A DNA stretch of 64,000 nucleotides from NCBI GenBank assembly GCA_937928575.1, contig CALFWW010000001.1, positions 2,281 to 66,280 of the forward strand. Direction: 5' to 3'. How positions within the stretch are numbered: the first letter of the stretch is position 1; every line of letters begins with the position of its first letter. The notes under the pieces were generated by a model. It was given only the letters and a program-made list of their open reading frames with translations, had not been told where the DNA came from and did no database searches. Positions 7,484-25,699 of the stretch are shown one piece after another. This DNA is from an uncultured Saprospiraceae bacterium (GTDB lineage Bacteria; Bacteroidota; Bacteroidia; Chitinophagales; Saprospiraceae). Both the position numbers and the translations under genes were made by a program.

Positions 7484-10363
7484 ATGGCCCAATCTAAAGC
7501 GTACGATAACTTCCAAAAACGACACATCGGAATCAATGAAGGCGAACTGGATTTGATGTTGAAAGCTATAAAAGCAAAATCACTTGACAAGCTGATCGAT
7601 GAAACAATTCCATCAACCATCCGATTAAAAAAGAAATTAAATCTACCGGAAGGAATTTCTGAAAATGAATTTTTGAGAGAATTGAAACAAACCGCTTCTC
7701 TAAACAAAGTCTTCCGTACTTACATCGGTCAAGGATATTATGGAACAATCACACCCTCTGTAATCCTTCGTAATATTTTTCAAAATCCAGGATGGTATAC
7801 CCAATACACGCCTTATCAAGCGGAGATTGCACAAGGGCGTTTGGAAGCGTTATTGAATTTCCAAACCATGTTGAGCGACCTGACGGGATTGCCAATTGCA
7901 AATGCATCTTTATTGGATGAAGGGACTGCAGCAGCTGAAGCAATGGCGATGTTTTACAGTATCAAAAACAAGCGCAACAAAGGAGACATGCAAAATGAAT
8001 TCTTTGTAGATGACAATGTGTTTCCGCAAACTTTAGAAGTCATCAAAACAAGGGCAATTCCTTTAGATATCAAAGTGATTGTTGGCGATTGGAAAAAATT
8101 TAAACCAAGTGATAATACTTTCGGTGTCTTTTTACAGTATCCTTGTGCCAATGGAGAAGTGGAGGATTATGGAAAATTTGTCAAGAAATTAGCCGCTAAA
8201 GAAATCTATACAACTGTCGGTGCAGATATTTTATCCCTTGCGATTTTGACACCACCGGGAGAGTGGGGAGCAGATGCGGTAGTAGGAAATACGCAACGAT
8301 TAGGTGTGCCAATGGGCTATGGTGGTCCACATGCTGCTTACTTCACTTGTAAAGAGGACTACAAAAGACAAATTCCAGGTCGAATCATTGGCGTCTCTAT
8401 TGATTCTAACAATCGTCCTGCATTAAGAATGGCATTGCAAACACGTGAGCAACATATCCGCCGTGAAAAAGCAACTTCCAATATCTGTACGGCGCAGGCT
8501 TTGTTAGCGATCATGGCAGGCATGTATGCGACCTATCATGGACCTCAAGGTATTCAGGAAATTGCCCAAAAGATATATTCCGCAACTAGTTTGTTAGCAG
8601 ATTCATTGGAAGCATTAGGATATAAGTTAGAAAACAAATATCACTTCGATACAATTGCGGTTAATTTAAAAACAGACCAAAAAGCAAAAATTAAGAAATT
8701 GGCAGTTGCTTCAAAAATAAATTTCTGGTATACAAAAAGTGGTGTACAAATTTCATTAGATGAGACGGTCAACAAGACTGACTTGATGGACATCATTACC
8801 ATCTTTGCAACTGCCAAACGTAAAAAGAAAATTCAACTCAAAAAAGCACCAAGTGGCATCCGATTACCAAAATCATTGAAAAGAACGTCTCCTTATTTGA
8901 CACATGAGACTTTCAATGCTTACCATACAGAATCTAAAATGATGCGGTATATTAAGCGTTTGGAAAATCGCGATTTGTCATTGACACATTCTATGATCCC
9001 ATTGGGTTCTTGCACCATGAAATTGAATGCGGCGACGCAATTGATTCCGGTAAGTTGGAATGAATTTGCCAATCTGCACCCATTTGTTCCTGCAAATCAA
9101 GCTAAAGGATACCATCAAATTTTTGAAGAATTGGAAATGTATTTGTCAGAAATTACTGGTTTCGACGCATGTTCATTACAACCCAATTCAGGTGCACAAG
9201 GAGAGTACACCGGTTTGATGACCATCAGAGCTTACCATGAAGATAGAGGAGATCATCATAGAAATATCGCTTTAATCCCACAATCTGCACACGGAACGAA
9301 TCCCGCAAGTGCAGTGATGGTCGGGATGAAAGTAGTAGTCGTTAAATGCGATGGGGATGGAAATATTGATGTTGCTGATTTGAAAACAAAGGCAAAAGAA
9401 CATAAGGAGAATTTGTCTGCACTCATGGTGACTTATCCATCGACACATGGTGTATTCGAAGTGAAGATAAAAGAGATTTGTAAAATCATACATCAAAATG
9501 GAGGACTCGTCTATATGGATGGTGCCAATATGAATGCGCAAGTTGGGTTGACAAGTCCGGGTGCGATTGATGCGGATGTTTGTCACTTAAATTTACACAA
9601 AACTTTCAGTATTCCTCATGGAGGAGGAGGACCAGGAATGGGACCGATTTGTGTCAATAAAAAACTAGCTCCATATCTTCCAGGTCATATTCACCAAAAG
9701 AATTCGAAGAAAAATATATCAGCCGTCTCAGCTGCAGCTTATGGAAGCGCAAGTATATTGTTAATTTCATACGCATACATCAAGATGCTCGGTCAGGAAG
9801 GCGTAGTTGAATCTACTCGATATGCGATACTAAATGCAAATTATATCATGGCAAGATTGGAAGGGCCTTACCAAGTATTGTACACAGGTGCCAAAGGAAG
9901 ATCTGCTCATGAATTAATTATTGATTTAAGACCTTTCAAAGCAATAGCCAGTGCAGAAGATGTAGCAAAGCGATTAATTGACTATGGATTTCATGCACCA
10001 ACTTTATCATTTCCAGTAGCAGGCACCATCATGATTGAACCTACAGAAAGTGAAAGTTTGGATGAGTTGGATCGTTTCTGCGATGCAATGTTGGCCATCA
10101 GAAATGAAATTGATGAAATTGCCAATGGGGGAGATCCTGAAAACAACGTGTTACATAACGCACCGCACACGATGCAGTTGGTAGCAGCAGATGAATGGAA
10201 TATGCCGTATTCAAGAGAGAAGGCAGCATTTCCACTTCCATATTTGCGACAAGGTTATAAATTTTGGCCACACGTAGGTCGTGTCAATAATGCACATGGA
10301 GATCGTACTTTGATTTGTACTTGTCCTCCTATGGAAATGTATGAAGAAATGGTGGAGGCATAA
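7484..10363 (+). CDS. gcvP: Glycine dehydrogenase (decarboxylating), glycine cleavage P protein
   Basis: About 959 aa, the single-chain P-protein length. Conserved stretches include [24 protein letters not shown] and [19 protein letters not shown] (the PLP-lysine region). The ATG at 7484 is preferred over the TTG at 7472. Confidence 0.95.
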
Positions 10364-15961: not shown

Positions 15962-16130
15962 ATCTTTAAGTTAAATGTTTAAAGAACTGGTTGCATAAAT
16001 AGGATGCATTTTAGAGAAAAAAAGTTGTATCGCTTCATGGATTCCCTTTTATTTATTGTGTAATCTATTGGAAATTGGTTAAAAAAGAAAATAGCGGACT
16101 AGAACAGAAAACTTTTCCATTAAGAAATAC

Positions 16131-16160
16131 CCAAACAAACAAGTTATCTGTTCTACATTT
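16131..16160. repeat. Locus-specific palindrome-containing repeat, copy e (divergent rSAM / His-rich gene intergenic region)
   Basis: ccaaacaaacaagttatctgttctacattt aligns with copies at 16823, 17654, 18025 and 18082. It is flanked by the inverted pair tagaacaga (16100-16108) and tctgttcta (16147-16155). Confidence 0.6.
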
Positions 16161-16248
16161 ATGTTTCTGTATTCCAAACGTCGATTTGGAAGCTAAAATA
16201 TACTTAAATTTATCTTTTACAATTTTTATCTTTTATAATTTTTTAGAG

Positions 16249-16698
16249 ATGGCAAAGCACATTTTTTATTCTGTTTTATTTTTAGTAATCAGCGTATTAG
16301 CGGTTTCATGTGGTGATGATGATGCAACACCTGATGATGATCATCATTCTGATTTAGCGTATAAAGTACATATTCATTCTCCATCTACTGATGATAAGAA
16401 TGTAGGAGATATGATACACATTCATACTGATTTTGAAAGTGAATCTGGTGAAGCAGTTCATCACATCAAAGTTAGAATATACAATGCTGTGGATAATAGT
16501 ATTGAAATTTACAATCAACCGGATGTAGCGCATGTCCATGAAACTGACGGAATGCTTGAATTCCATGATGATTTTATGTTGACAAATGCAAATGGCGTTG
16601 ATGCCCATACGGATTGGATACTAGAAGCAAAAGTTTGGGGACATGAAGCTGAGGAAGGAGAAGTGATTCAAACAATTCAATTTCATGTACATCCATAA
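16249..16698 (+). CDS. Histidine-rich lipoprotein (putative metal-binding)
   Basis: The ATG at 16249 gives MAKHIFYSVLFLVISVLAVSCGDDD, a signal peptide plus a lipobox Cys. By my count the mature chain of about 130 aa has about 15 His. The motif HxH recurs: VHIHS, IHIHT, AHVHE, FHVHP. Confidence 0.75.
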   Translation: MAKHIFYSVLFLVISVLAVSCGDDDATPDDDHHSDLAYKVHIHSPSTDDKNVGDMIHIHTDFESESGEAVHHIKVRIYNAVDNSIEIYNQPDVAHVHETDGMLEFHDDFMLTNANGVDAHTDWILEAKVWGHEAEEGEVIQTIQFHVHP

Positions 16699-16726
16699 TA
16701 GATAATTGGGAAACTAAAATAAAAAC

Positions 16727-16759
16727 CCCTCAATGACTACTTTCATTGAGGGTTTTTTT
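16727..16759 (+). terminator. Rho-independent terminator after the His-rich lipoprotein gene
   Basis: ccctcaatga (16727-16736) pairs with tcattgaggg (16743-16752) and is followed by ttttttt. Confidence 0.8.
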
Positions 16760-16822
16760 ATTTTGTAGATCGGGAATTATTTCTATTTCCAAAGTAGAAC
16801 AGAAATCATTTCTTTAATGAAA

Positions 16823-16869
16823 ATCCAAATAGTCAGGATGTCTGTTCAGCATTGTCTGTTCTACAAAAA
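16823..16869. repeat. Locus-specific palindrome-containing repeat, copy a (upstream of the CPBP protease gene)
   Basis: Sequence atccaaatagtcaggatgtctgttcagcattgtctgttctacaaaaa. The inverted pair gtagaacaga (16794-16803) and tctgttctac (16855-16864) brackets it. Confidence 0.6.
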
Positions 16870-16878
16870 ACAAAAGAG

Positions 16879-17628
16879 ATGAAAAATCAAAAATTAAAAG
16901 TAGGACTCTTAATTTTTTTAGCAGGTTCAATTGGTGCATTATCTTTGTTGGCTTTTGATTTGACTTCTATAAAATTTATCGCAGACAACCTCCCAGTATC
17001 TGTGACAAAATGGGAATTGAAATTAGTCTCATTAATAAATCCTTTAATGATGGTCACTGTATTCACAGTATTAGGAACTGTTTTGTATGAGAAGGTTGGA
17101 TATCCATTACCTGTTTTTGAAAGTATTGTGGATCGGAATACAGAGGTAAATTTAAAGCAGATTTTAATAAAGGGAATAATTGGAGGAATGATAGCTGGGG
17201 TAGGTATTGTTATATCAACTGTGATTGCTTTTCAATTTTTACCGCAAAAATATTTACTGGTGCTCGATCAATTTCAACTACCGCTCATTACTAAGCTGTT
17301 ATATGGTGGTATTGCAGAAGAAGTGATCATGCGTTTTGGGCTCCAAACTTTTTTAACTTGGATATTATTTAAAGTTTTTAAAAATCTAAATTTATCAGTT
17401 ATTCTAGCGATCCTCATTTCAGCAATTCTTTTTGCTCTAGGACATTTCCCAATTCTGTATTTACTGTTTCCTGAGCCTTCTTCAACTCTTTTAGTTTATA
17501 TCATTGTTGGAAATTCAATTGGAGGAATAGTTTTCGGATATTTATATTGGAAAATAGGATTGAGTGCTGCAATGATTGCGCATATGGTTACACATATTGT
17601 TATGATACTTCTCTCAAGTGCAGTGTAG
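16879..17628 (+). CDS. CPBP family (CAAX/Abi-type) intramembrane glutamic protease
   Basis: Polytopic membrane protein with the motifs EEVIMRFG (EExxxR), FALGH (FxxxH) and a C-terminal HMVTH. The ATG at 16879 is preferred over the TTG at 16852. Confidence 0.8.
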   Translation: MKNQKLKVGLLIFLAGSIGALSLLAFDLTSIKFIADNLPVSVTKWELKLVSLINPLMMVTVFTVLGTVLYEKVGYPLPVFESIVDRNTEVNLKQILIKGIIGGMIAGVGIVISTVIAFQFLPQKYLLVLDQFQLPLITKLLYGGIAEEVIMRFGLQTFLTWILFKVFKNLNLSVILAILISAILFALGHFPILYLLFPEPSSTLLVYIIVGNSIGGIVFGYLYWKIGLSAAMIAHMVTHIVMILLSSAV

Positions 17629-17653
17629 AACATAAATCTTTTCTGTTATGAAA

Positions 17654-17700
17654 ATCTAAACAGACAAGATGTCTGGTACTTAGTTTAAAATTCTGTTAGC
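17654..17700. repeat. Locus-specific palindrome-containing repeat, copy b
   Basis: Sequence atctaaacagacaagatgtctggtacttagtttaaaattctgttagc. It contains aacagac-aagat-gtctg. Confidence 0.6.
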
Positions 17701-17762
17701 GAACAATAGTTCAAATAAAATGGAAAAGATAGATTTAGATGTGTACAAATTGTTTTTGAAAT

Positions 17763-17990
17763 ATGGTGAGGAATGTTTATGGCTCAGTGATTCAAGAATT
17801 ACACGCCCAGAAGGAACTTCACTTCAAACGGATGAAATGTTTTGATATGCTGAATGCAGTTGAAAAGAAACTAGAAATGTTAGCAACTGGAAATTATTCT
17901 AAGAATATAGAAGAAGTTTTAAAAGAAGAAATTGAAAAGTTAAGATCTAACTTAACTATGGATGTTTTTGAATTAATCAGTAAAAAGTAA
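17763..17990 (+). CDS. Small hypothetical helical protein (start and frame uncertain)
   Basis: 75-aa ORF that is K/E-rich and coiled-coil-like. A 41-codon ORF in another frame (17720-17845) overlaps its 5' end, so this may be a frameshifted gene. Confidence 0.35.
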   Translation: MVRNVYGSVIQELHAQKELHFKRMKCFDMLNAVEKKLEMLATGNYSKNIEEVLKEEIEKLRSNLTMDVFELISKK

Positions 17991-18024
17991 AGCAGAAGTC
18001 TTTTCTCTTTTCTGTTTATGGACT

Positions 18025-18080
18025 ATCCAAACAGGCTAGATGTCTGTTCAACATTTAAAATTATTTCTGTTCTACAAAAA
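18025..18080. repeat. Locus-specific palindrome-containing repeat, copy c
   Basis: Sequence atccaaacaggctagatgtctgttcaacatttaaaattatttctgttctacaaaaa. Confidence 0.6.
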
Positions 18081-18081
18081 T

Positions 18082-18135
18082 TTCCAAACAGACAAGATAT
18101 CTGTTCAACACTTCAAGATTGTCTGTTCAACATTT
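18082..18135. repeat. Locus-specific palindrome-containing repeat, copy d (tandem with copy c, upstream of the acyltransferase gene)
   Basis: Sequence ttccaaacagacaagatatctgttcaacacttcaagattgtctgttcaacattt. Its core is aacagac-aagat-atctgtt. Confidence 0.6.
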
Positions 18136-18168
18136 AATTAGTAATTTGAGGCATAACACAGAGACCAT

Positions 18169-19536
18169 ATGCTTTACAAGCCATTGAAATTTATTTTCAG
18201 TACTGCTTTACACCTATTCTTCAAAGAATACAAAGTCATTAATAAAACGGAGATTCCGACCACGGGTCCGTTGATTTTGGTGTCCAATCATCCTAGTTCC
18301 TTTATGGATCCGATTATCTTGGCGAGCCTTGTCCAACAAGAAGTACACTTCATTGCAAAAGGTACTTTGTTTAATTCTGTGGCTAAAGATTGGATCATGC
18401 GCAATATCATGAAAGCCATTCCTATTTATAGAAAAGTGGATAATCCTGGTAAAAAATTGGACAATGATGGCGTCTTTGAACAATGTTTTAAATTCCTGGA
18501 AGAAAAAGGAACCCTAATTATTTTTCCTGAAGGTACCAGTATTATTGATCGAAAGTTGCAAGATATTAAAACAGGAACTGCTCGTATCGCATTAGGTGCG
18601 GAGGCTAGAAACGATTTTGAATTAGGTGTGAAGATTTTGTCAGTAGGAATCAATTACAGTGATGCACCGAGTTTCCAATCTGATGTTTGGATTAATGTCG
18701 AGGAATTGATTCACGTGAAAGATTATCGGATGCAATATCATGAAGATGATAGAAATGCAGTTCGGGAATTGACGGATAAAATTCAGAGTAATCTTGAAAA
18801 AAATCTAATCATCACGGAAGATGAGCAAGAGGATCAATTTATCAAAAATGTAGAAGCAATCTACAAAAACGAATTGATGTCTGAATTGAAATTGGATCCG
18901 CAATTACATTCTTTCAATTTGACCAAAGGAATAGAAGAAGCGATTGATCATTTTGAGGAGTTGGATAAAACTTGGTTGGAAAATTTGAAACAAAAAGTAG
19001 CAGATTATACCCGTCGACTAGAAAATTATGAATTGAAAGATGAATTTTTAGCAAGAAAAAAAGATAATAAAAAAAACAATGTGTTTACAGATACGATATT
19101 TAGAATATTATATATCATTATGGGATTCCCATTTTATGTTTATGGATTGATCACCAATTACATTCCTTATTTTTTACCGAGCAAAATTGCGACTTCACTG
19201 ACTGATTTTGTTGAATACGATGGACCAGTTAAAATGACGGCAGGTATATTTACGTTTGCGACTTATTATGCATTCATCATTTATTTATTTGAAAAATTCA
19301 TTTCGCAGGGAAACTGGTGGTGGACCAATTTATTTACGATTAGTTTACCCATTGCAGGATTTTTCGCCTTACATTATGTCCAGCGATTCAGAAATTTCAA
19401 AACACATTCTAAATTATTATCCTTGTTTTACAAAGAACCAGATATAGTCGGAGAACTAATGTTGGAAAGAAAGACGATTATAAAAGAATTTGATTGGGCA
19501 AAGGAAGAATGGCTGAAATTGTCAGAGGGTGTTTAA
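18169..19536 (+). CDS. Lysophospholipid/glycerol-phosphate acyltransferase (PlsC family) with C-terminal membrane extension
   Basis: 455 aa with an acyltransferase block NHPSSFMD, FPEGT, and about 3 hydrophobic helices near the C-terminus. Confidence 0.75.
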   Translation: MLYKPLKFIFSTALHLFFKEYKVINKTEIPTTGPLILVSNHPSSFMDPIILASLVQQEVHFIAKGTLFNSVAKDWIMRNIMKAIPIYRKVDNPGKKLDNDGVFEQCFKFLEEKGTLIIFPEGTSIIDRKLQDIKTGTARIALGAEARNDFELGVKILSVGINYSDAPSFQSDVWINVEELIHVKDYRMQYHEDDRNAVRELTDKIQSNLEKNLIITEDEQEDQFIKNVEAIYKNELMSELKLDPQLHSFNLTKGIEEAIDHFEELDKTWLENLKQKVADYTRRLENYELKDEFLARKKDNKKNNVFTDTIFRILYIIMGFPFYVYGLITNYIPYFLPSKIATSLTDFVEYDGPVKMTAGIFTFATYYAFIIYLFEKFISQGNWWWTNLFTISLPIAGFFALHYVQRFRNFKTHSKLLSLFYKEPDIVGELMLERKTIIKEFDWAKEEWLKLSEGV

Positions 19537-19554: not shown

Positions 19555-20023
19555 CTCGGAGGGGCGATATAATGGAAATAAGGATTTTCGACAGTTAAAA
19601 TTTAGAGTAAATCAATTTTTATCAGAACACTATTAAATTAACCTCTTTTCATTCTGAGTGAAATCCCGAGAGAAAACTCGGGATGGAATCGAAGAATCAA
19701 GAGATGCTAGGATTTTAAATTTCGACCGTGTATTGACTTAAGTGAGTGAGCTGCGGAGAAATCTTAGTACTCTGAACATAGATTTTAGTGTAAAATTGAT
19801 TCGACGAGTAAATAGATTTCTCCACTAGCTCAATATCAATTACTCAAGGCACGGTCGAAATAGTAAAATCCAAGTACGCTTGATTCTTCGACTCCATGCC
19901 AATTGAAAATTGTTTAATCTAGACGAGTACGACGCCTATGCTCAGAATGACAAGCGTTTATTGCAAAATTTAGAATAATTTATAACAATATGAAGCCTAT
20001 TTCCATGACATTGCTCGGAGGGG
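19555..20023. repeat. Composite imperfect palindrome (about 300 bp) flanked by a 10-bp direct repeat; MITE-like or structured-RNA candidate
   Basis: The direct repeat ctcggagggg occurs at 19555-19564 and 20014-20023. Nested inverted pairs:
- tcattctgag (19649-19658) with ctcagaatga (19941-19950)
- ggaatcgaagaatcaag (19685-19701) with cttgattcttcgactcc (19879-19895)
- aatttcgaccgtg with cacggtcgaaat
- ggagaaatct with agatttctcc. Confidence 0.6.
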
Positions 20024-22142: not shown

Positions 22143-22442
22143 TTATTTACGTTTCTGCAGTAATTTTTCAAGCGCATCTAAATGTTCTTCAAATGCTTTA
22201 CGTCCAGCAACGGTACAAGCGTAAGTGGTCATCGGTTTTCTTCCTACAAATTGCTTTTTCAATTTAATGTATTTTTTCTCTTCCAAACCTTTGAGGTGAC
22301 TCGCCAAATTCCCATCTGTCAGTCCCAACAATTCTTTCAATCTTTTGAACTCCACCCAGTCATCAACGAGTAGGAGCGACATGATGCCCAACCGAGTTCG
22401 GTTGTCAAAAGTCTTGTTAAGATTTGTTATTATTTCTTTCAT
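22143..22442 (-). CDS. Small winged-helix transcriptional regulator
   Basis: 99 aa. The stretch LGIMSLL...FKRLKELLGLTDGNLASHLKGLEEKKYI..K is typical of ArsR/MarR-like wHTH proteins. Confidence 0.8.
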   Translation of the reverse strand: MKEIITNLNKTFDNRTRLGIMSLLLVDDWVEFKRLKELLGLTDGNLASHLKGLEEKKYIKLKKQFVGRKPMTTYACTVAGRKAFEEHLDALEKLLQKRK

Positions 22443-25607: not shown

Positions 25608-25699
25608 TCTCTAAAAGTCCATACCCCAAGAGCATAAAGAAATTACATAAGAACAACATTCGCCATCATCAAAGTGGCTAATAAAATAAAAAACAGACT

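Follow-up and report, generated by a model that had tools for sequence, protein, structure and literature searches.

An apparently low-copy family of tagged hairpin repeats in intergenic DNA of marine Saprospiraceae, with features of REP/REPIN elements

RESULTS

We analyzed a 64-kb stretch of contig CALFWW010000001.1 from an uncultured Saprospiraceae bacterium (the whole stretch is called the window below), in which five copies of a palindromic repeat lie close to a gene for a PlsC-like acyltransferase. With moderate confidence, we assign these copies to a small, low-copy, lineage-specific family of extragenic palindromic repeats in marine Saprospiraceae, of the kind known as repetitive extragenic palindromic sequences (REPs) and their paired forms, REPINs and bacterial interspersed mosaic elements (BIMEs). 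Its members are intergenic, have unrelated genes as neighbors, and typically start at or inside the preceding stop codon. The occupied sites differ between congeneric species, yet the core is identical across species. Cores of 24 nt that are identical between species, with flanks that have diverged, suggest that the copying was recent or that a protein recognizes the sequence.

Five copies of a dimeric repeat in the window

A direct-repeat finder returned one five-copy family (16119-16159, 16813-16853, 17644-17684, 18015-18055, and 18072-18112). An nhmmer profile built from 12 copies recovered the five copies with E values from 2e-8 to 2e-5, and no sixth copy appeared in the window below E = 0.08. 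The palindrome pattern AACAGNCNAGATRTCTGTT, allowing three or fewer mismatches, matched six times in the window, all inside 16134-18105; shuffled sequences gave a mean of 0.27 matches, and none of 100 shuffles reached six. For the half-site TCTGTTCWACA with at most one mismatch, 11 matches were counted against 3.4 expected, nine of them within 16147-18132.

A sequence-only reading of this DNA had already listed five copies with a palindromic core, and both features were confirmed by these searches, with the copies spanning 16100-18137. The inverted tagaacaga/tctgttcta brackets that it described around two copies are also present, as arms of 15 nt each that are 93% complementary (16100-16114 and 16141-16155) and as a second inverted pair (16793-16803 with 16855-16865). 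Its placement of the copies was likewise correct: one in the divergent region between the genes for a radical S-adenosylmethionine (rSAM) protein and a His-rich lipoprotein, one on either side of a CPBP protease gene, and two before the PlsC-like gene. Its statement that the motif is absent elsewhere in the 64 kb agrees with the profile search, but the lone half-site that it reported near 25691 is merely AAACAGAC and is not significant. The proposed unit of 30 to 55 bp was too small; a second, left-hand hairpin had been overlooked, and the real unit is a dimer of ~57-75 nt.

Each unit consists of two tagged hairpins

The left hairpin of each copy reads GTAG followed by AACAGAAA-TCN-TTTCTGTT and lies to the left of the core palindrome, AAACAGAC-AAGAT-GTCTGTT-CAAC. 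On the opposite strand, the core reads GT(A/T)G-AACAGAC-ATCTT-GTCTGTT-TGG, which is itself a tagged hairpin; the unit is therefore a pair of tagged hairpins in inverted orientation. The elementary hairpin of ~26 nt opens with a tag of 4 nt (GTAG or GTTG); an arm of 7-8 nt (AACAGAC or AACAGAAA) follows, then a loop of 3-6 nt, the complementary arm GTCTGTT, and T/G. The simplest dimer measures ~57 nt (the first unit of the window, unit A, and unit 2 of L037, a contig from a related species). The core palindrome has a 7-5-7 geometry (AACAGAC-AAGAT-GTCTGTT) and the left hairpin an 8-3-8 geometry, the latter being perfect at 9236-9254 of the relative L007. In an alignment of 13 copies, the conserved oriented core was AAACAGAC-AAGAT-GTCTGTTCAAC, and the loop (NRGAT) and the asymmetric flanks were conserved to the same degree as the arms. 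The tags on 21 complete hairpins from the window and its relatives were GTAG in 8, GTTG in 7, and other sequences in 6. When the tag is read first, TTT(T/G) comes after each hairpin.

All five units are described on the forward strand. Unit A (16100-16157; nhmmer E = 2e-5) comprises cTAG with the left hairpin (16103-16121), a spacer, a core at 16134-16152 (AACAAAC-AAGTT-ATCTGTT), and CTAC. It occupies the divergent region between the rSAM and His-rich lipoprotein genes, upstream of a conserved box, CGTCGATTTGG (16179-16189), and is an inverted dimer with a 15-bp outer stem when folded. Unit B (16794-16865; E = 2e-7) has GTAG with the left hairpin, a core at 16828-16846 (AATAGTC-AGGAT-GTCTGTT), an additional half-site (16841-16851), and TCTGTTCTAC on the outside (16855-16865); its fold has a 10-bp outer stem, and the start codon of the CPBP gene follows 13 nt past the end of the unit. 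Unit C (17625-17700; E = 7e-6) has GTAG with the left hairpin at 17629-17647, a core at 17659-17677 (AACAGAC-AAGAT-GTCTGGT), and a degenerate right end, and the TAG of its GTAG tag is the stop codon of the CPBP gene (17626-17628). Units B and C are 84% identical across 51 nt.

Unit D (17991-18076; E = 2e-8) combines a degenerate left arm with a core at 18030-18048 (AACAGGC-TAGAT-GTCTGTT) plus CAAC and an outer half-site, TCTGTTCTACA, at 18066-18076. It begins directly behind the stop codon of a small open reading frame (ORF) and has a degenerate counterpart in L007. Unit E (18082-18132; E = 2e-7) stands in tandem with unit D, with a core at 18087-18105 (AACAGAC-AAGAT-ATCTGTT) plus CAAC and a second half-site at 18120-18132. 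The unit E core is also found before the PlsC-like gene in L007 and in L036/L037, and a copy on L017, a contig of a congeneric metagenome-assembled genome (MAG), shares the 24-nt core of unit E exactly. Core-to-start-codon distances within the window vary between 28 and 89 nt.

When folded as single-stranded DNA, the long hairpins gave z scores of -4.5 for unit A, -2.9 for unit B, and -3.6 for a pair of copies in L016. The stems themselves are short and rich in A/T; as DNA they reach -3 to -8 kcal/mol, in several cases no better than a shuffled sequence. All ~20 copies in the window and at the loci of its relatives are extragenic, lying between ORFs and at most overlapping a stop codon. Copies start 0-10 nt past stop codons, three stop codons fall inside the tag, and one copy is located between convergent genes.

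Copies at unrelated loci of a congeneric genome

A strict 22-nt pattern was scanned over one genome per species, and 16 matches were obtained, the window's own locus not being among them. Three were on contigs of a single congeneric Saprospiraceae MAG, each with a second copy nearby; the other 13 were singletons in unrelated phyla, at about the level of chance. One MAG site is an inverted dimer between two unannotated genes. Another, in L017, is a tandem dimer that begins inside the stop codon of a gene for a giant type IX secretion system (T9SS) protein. At a further site, two copies in the same orientation bracket one DUF1835 gene, and one of the two is the copy between convergent genes. No common theme was apparent among the genes beside the MAG copies (DUF1835, beta-lactamase-fold, fatty-acid hydroxylase, giant T9SS protein, and genes of unknown function).

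One further marine metagenome contig held a copy resembling unit D with different flanks. Alignment of single units to metagenome contigs, with an aligner that needs matches of ~40 nt, yielded this extra contig only and none for unit B or E. A scan of JGI metagenomes gave eight matches, all in unrelated and mostly coding sequence, a scan of viral contigs gave none, and the units had no blastn match among plasmid and phage records. Rfam returned solely sub-threshold, terminator-like matches, which fell on the terminator of the His-rich lipoprotein gene. The sequence is contained only in DNA runs of a marine metagenome and in no RNA runs.

Orthologous sites are empty in the window's species

The orthologous regions of two MAG sites were found through protein clusters at 90% identity; L042-L044 and L046/L047 were taken as the window's species because they came from the same samples as its conspecific contigs. 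The spacer between the hydroxylase and DUF1835 genes measures 70 nt with the element in the MAG and 34 and 28 nt without it in two other species, the window's species (L042-L044) and a third species (L045), and its flanks align. In the MAG, the spacer between genes encoding 698- and 222-aa proteins is occupied by the inverted dimer, whereas in L046/L047 it consists of unrelated sequence, again between conserved flanks. Both MAG sites compared are empty in the window's species. Since the DUF1835 gene stands at the same place without the element in two species, its bracketing in the MAG is a gain of the element and not the capture of a gene.

At the junction between the DUF1835 and beta-lactamase-fold genes, the window's species also carries a cysE-like and cysK-like gene pair (SATase_N/Hexapep and PALP domains; L042, 8434-10066). 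The congeneric MAG has no such pair and has a hairpin element at that junction (L040, 16320-16450).

The PlsC locus in related species

Orthologous loci were fetched with the PlsC-like protein as the anchor. The PlsC-like gene (18169-19536, forward strand; Pfam PF01553, E = 6e-20) is the conserved anchor of the locus and is preceded, 10 nt before its start codon, by a promoter-like box, TAGTAATTTGAGGCATAACAC (18139-18159, forward strand), which is identical in L007 and nearly so in L037. The CPBP (Rce1-like) intramembrane protease gene (16879-17628, forward strand; Pfam PF02517, E = 1e-12) lies between units B and C, and the small ORF of 75 aa, with no family assignment (17763-17990, forward strand), between units C and D. 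The rSAM/SPASM gene is encoded on the minus strand within this stretch. The His-rich lipoprotein gene ends in a canonical intrinsic terminator (16713-16766, forward strand) with 24-nt arms followed by a T run; given this strong terminator, the CPBP gene is not simply cotranscribed with the preceding gene.

All five units are present on the conspecific contigs. Across five species, the PlsC locus carries five units (the window), three (L007), three (L036/L037), one (L005), and none (L038). In L007, whose PlsC-like protein is 88% identical, the rSAM operon is kept, the CPBP gene is absent, and the small ORF is absent apart from a possible 3' remnant; three units abut each other, with an intact core in the last alone and degeneration in the other two. 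Three abutting units also precede the PlsC-like gene in L036/L037 (90% identical), where the contigs break inside the cluster and L036 has no CPBP gene. In L005 (90% identical), the rSAM gene has been lost, the His-rich lipoprotein gene is kept, a metallophosphoesterase gene occupies the place where the CPBP gene would be, and the single copy is degenerate and inverted. No copy was found at the PlsC locus of L038 (86% identical), and neither synteny nor the motif was found in distant relatives (64-70% identical). At the corresponding place, L007 and L005 have either no unit A or a degenerate one. From the PlsC promoter-like box (TAGTAATTTGAGGCATAACAC/TAGTAATTTG), the nearest core is 29 nt away in the window, 27 nt in L007, and 7 nt in L037.

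In a search of 5.8 billion proteins, the nearest non-self homologue of the CPBP protein was 46% identical, compared with 86-90% for the relatives of the PlsC-like protein, and the CPBP gene was probably acquired recently or has evolved very fast. From this difference, the simplest history is that an older cluster of units stood before the PlsC-like gene and that the CPBP gene and the small ORF later came to lie within it in this lineage.

Several remnants were seen at this locus. Of the rSAM/SPASM gene, L005 keeps just 44 aa from the 5' end (8211-8345); of the His-rich lipoprotein gene, L007 keeps the last ~90 nt (9051-9142), with the promoter-like box CGTCGATTT retained. The small ORF encodes 63 aa on the conspecific contig L001 (9595-9786) and 75 aa on other conspecific contigs, and in the window two overlapping frames of 41 and 75 aa are found at 17720-17990; these length differences fit a frameshift or strain variation.

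DISCUSSION

REPs are palindromes of 20-40 bp tagged GTAG or CGTC (PMC3733652). The Saprospiraceae family resembles them, and REPINs and BIMEs, in its short imperfect palindrome of ~20-30 nt, which on most hairpins bears a tag of 4 nt at the 5' side (GTAG or GTTG), and in its strictly extragenic location, often just past stop codons. Copies are arranged as inverted dimers that fold into a longer hairpin (A, B, and L016), as tandem dimers (L017), and in clusters of three to five before the PlsC-like gene, and occupancy varies among related genomes although the sequence is uniform. If the family is of this kind, it would have been copied to new sites, now or recently, by a trans-acting protein that recognizes the tag and hairpin. 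By analogy, the likeliest mobilizer would be a Y1 HUH transposase of the RAYT (REP-associated tyrosine transposase) or TnpA(REP) type acting on single-stranded DNA, although no such gene was seen. TnpA(REP) subclasses 2.4 and 2.6 have been found in Bacteroidetes together with atypical REP-like structures (PMC6006769). The five window copies may represent a local cluster before the PlsC-like gene, where relatives have 2-3 units that abut without intervening genes. In the window's species, the CPBP gene and the small ORF would have ended up among the units, and neighboring genes would have been deleted in relatives, a turnover that recombination among direct repeats plausibly helps. Some copies may also act as weak terminators or insulators because TTT(T/G) follows the hairpin in the tag-first direction.

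Several observations weigh against a REP-like assignment. Classical REPs number tens to hundreds per genome; here, one cluster was found in ~85 kb of the window's species (the window, L042, and L046) with no further copies, the congener has three strict-pattern loci, and no copies were found in ~27 kb of extra sequence around the MAG matches. Just ~70% of the hairpins are tagged GTAG or GTTG; about half of these tags are GTTG, which is a noncanonical tag (PMC3733652), and the stems are A/T-rich. The stems show no compensatory changes and hence no direct evidence of selection on the hairpin itself. A clean insertion would not account for all the differences between occupied and empty sites, and mobility is therefore inferred and not demonstrated. 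No RAYT, transposase, or recombinase was present among the scanned window ORFs and the fetched gene tables, the whole genome not having been searched for one. Finally, co-regulated promoters would also look like this: four consecutive spacers with five copies, which share one orientation with respect to the genes.

The sequence-only reading had proposed that the copies are operator sites of one regulator that ties the flanking genes into a local regulon. In such a scheme, a dimeric transcription factor would bind the 7-5-7 palindrome, or a response regulator would bind TCTGTTCWACA direct repeats 22-23 nt apart, and the His-rich lipoprotein, CPBP, small-ORF, and PlsC-like genes would be co-regulated along with a few operons elsewhere. 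The spacers concerned are all upstream spacers, sites that are few and confined to intergenic DNA are what a regulon typically shows, the core before the PlsC-like gene is kept in three species, and a core that is identical across species is probably read by some protein. The half-sites of units D and E lie 22-23 nt apart, a spacing like that of LytTR sites. LytTR-regulated loci of the bacteriocin type comprise neighboring small operons that share a repeated 50-80-nt module with direct repeats about two helical turns apart; like the window, they contain several small operons, including a gene for a CPBP/Abi-type membrane protease, each following a conserved module. Unlike them, the window has neither a histidine kinase nor a LytTR regulator among the ORFs scanned, the promoter-like box lies at variable distances from the copies, and copies in the relative lie at gene 3' ends, with orthologous spacers devoid of sites.

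The distribution of the copies in relatives did not bear out the regulon proposal, and we consider operators an unlikely explanation. In the congeneric MAG, copies are scattered irrespective of gene context, at low copy number, behind stop codons and in one case between convergent genes, and the orthologous spacers of the window's species were empty in both comparisons. Conservation in related genomes was also not of the kind expected of such sites: the distance from the core to the PlsC box (TAGTAATTTG) varies (29, 27, and 7 nt), the L005 copy is inverted, and unit A is not conserved before the orthologous His-rich lipoprotein gene in L005 or L007, whereas the CGTCGATTT box is. Conservation of the loop and asymmetric flanks fits descent of the copies from one another better than a symmetric operator. 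There is no plausible adjacent regulator; in the scanned parts of the window, the only regulator is an HTH_34 protein (22143-22442, 4 kb away) with no LytTR regulator, recombinase, or transposase, and the profile found no site in the upstream region of the HTH_34 gene itself. The Bacteroidetes -7 box, TAnnTTTG, precedes few genes of the window and was uninformative for promoters within the repeats. LytTR-type direct repeats were dropped as the leading explanation since relatives keep the palindrome alone and the spacing in unit B is 14 nt. Resemblances to parS, the DnaA box, and the LexA box were also dropped, as none fits the palindrome.

As its fallback, the sequence-only reading had suggested a locus-restricted repeat associated with cassette-like gene turnover. 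This comes nearer to the evidence, in that the genes between the copies do differ among species, but the repeat is present at other loci in the lineage and is not restricted to one. A more specific form of this idea, to which we assign a low probability, is that the units are recombination sites of a gene-cassette system, comparable to the attC sites of integrons or to hairpin-ended elements derived from IS200/IS605. A recombinase encoded elsewhere would then insert and excise single genes, such as the CPBP gene, at the hairpins. The units share with attC sites, and with clusters of attC sites lacking integrases (CALINs), imperfect palindromes between co-oriented short ORFs whose content varies among species. 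These ORFs almost exactly fill the space between units, with a start codon 13 nt past unit B and stop codons inside the next unit, and the CPBP gene is unique to the window's species, with its nearest homologue at 46%. Conserved AAC and GTT triplets are characteristic of attC sites, which form one long bulged hairpin, and the outer 7-bp inverted repeats GTAGAAC/GTTCTAC hold both; however, these repeats do not match the purine/pyrimidine pattern of the attC R box (RYYYAAC/GTTRRRY), and each arm here forms a small hairpin of its own. The DUF1835 gene of the MAG is bracketed by two same-orientation copies as a cassette would be, yet it is ancestral to the locus, occurring there without the element in two other species. 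Pairs of units with no ORF between them occur, units lie back to back in relatives (L007 and L037) or isolated, and copies are oriented differently toward the bracketed gene in the window than in L019. Unlike integron cassettes, the His-rich lipoprotein gene comes with a terminator of its own and with a promoter-like box that is conserved, and no integrase was found in any context examined (gene tables and scanned window ORFs).

A related proposal, for which we see only a slim chance, is that the hairpin units are ends or recombination sites of a Bacteroidota gene-capture system with a single-strand-specific recombinase, which would operate in the manner of integron cassettes or of passenger elements derived from IS200/IS605 while being unrelated in sequence to either; if so, the cluster upstream of the PlsC-like gene would be a chromosomal landing pad for single genes (the CPBP gene and the small ORF). 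We give equally little credence to a plain family of similar intrinsic terminators or RNA-stabilizing stem-loops spread by local duplication with no mobility mechanism. Tag-first hairpins do follow stop codons and precede TTT(T/G), and the tandem arrangement of units D and E, together with the similarity of units B and C, suggests local duplication. On the other hand, the stems are short and A/T-rich, several of them doing no better than shuffled sequence, the genome uses far stronger canonical terminators such as that at 16713-16766, and the majority of the window's cores face away from the gene upstream of them. Local duplication also leaves unexplained the identical cores on different contigs and in different species.

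Considered overall, the finding is a fairly ordinary one. Its practical consequence is that these repeats give no grounds for annotating the rSAM, His-rich lipoprotein, CPBP, and PlsC-like genes as one regulon. Through it, a family of tagged hairpin repeats, from uncultured marine Saprospiraceae, is added to a phylum, Bacteroidetes, for which the 2013 survey reported only CGTC-type REPs and none of the GTAG type (PMC3733652). The family also serves as a marker of a small hotspot where genes are gained and lost. Should a matching Y1 transposase be found, the family would provide a compact, low-copy system for studying REP/REPIN dynamics in Bacteroidota; otherwise the finding is of local interest only.

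Some minor features of these loci are also recorded. Contigs end in or beside hairpin clusters at L036 1-155, L037 1-64, and L017 6330-6615, which suggests that hairpin repeats break assemblies and that copies may be under-represented in MAGs. On the other side of the PlsC-like gene, the window has ~470 bp of noncoding, species-specific sequence before a DUF1361 gene (19555-20023), so that this side is variable too; the same interval is a 62-68-nt spacer with one hairpin in L007 and L036 and contains an Acyl_transf_3 gene in L005. In L038, several copies of a short repeat resembling TTCAAACTTAAAT precede the PlsC-like gene (40-125). This repeat is distinct from the hairpin family, and in L007 (9384-9410) it fills the interval from the intact core to the promoter-like box.

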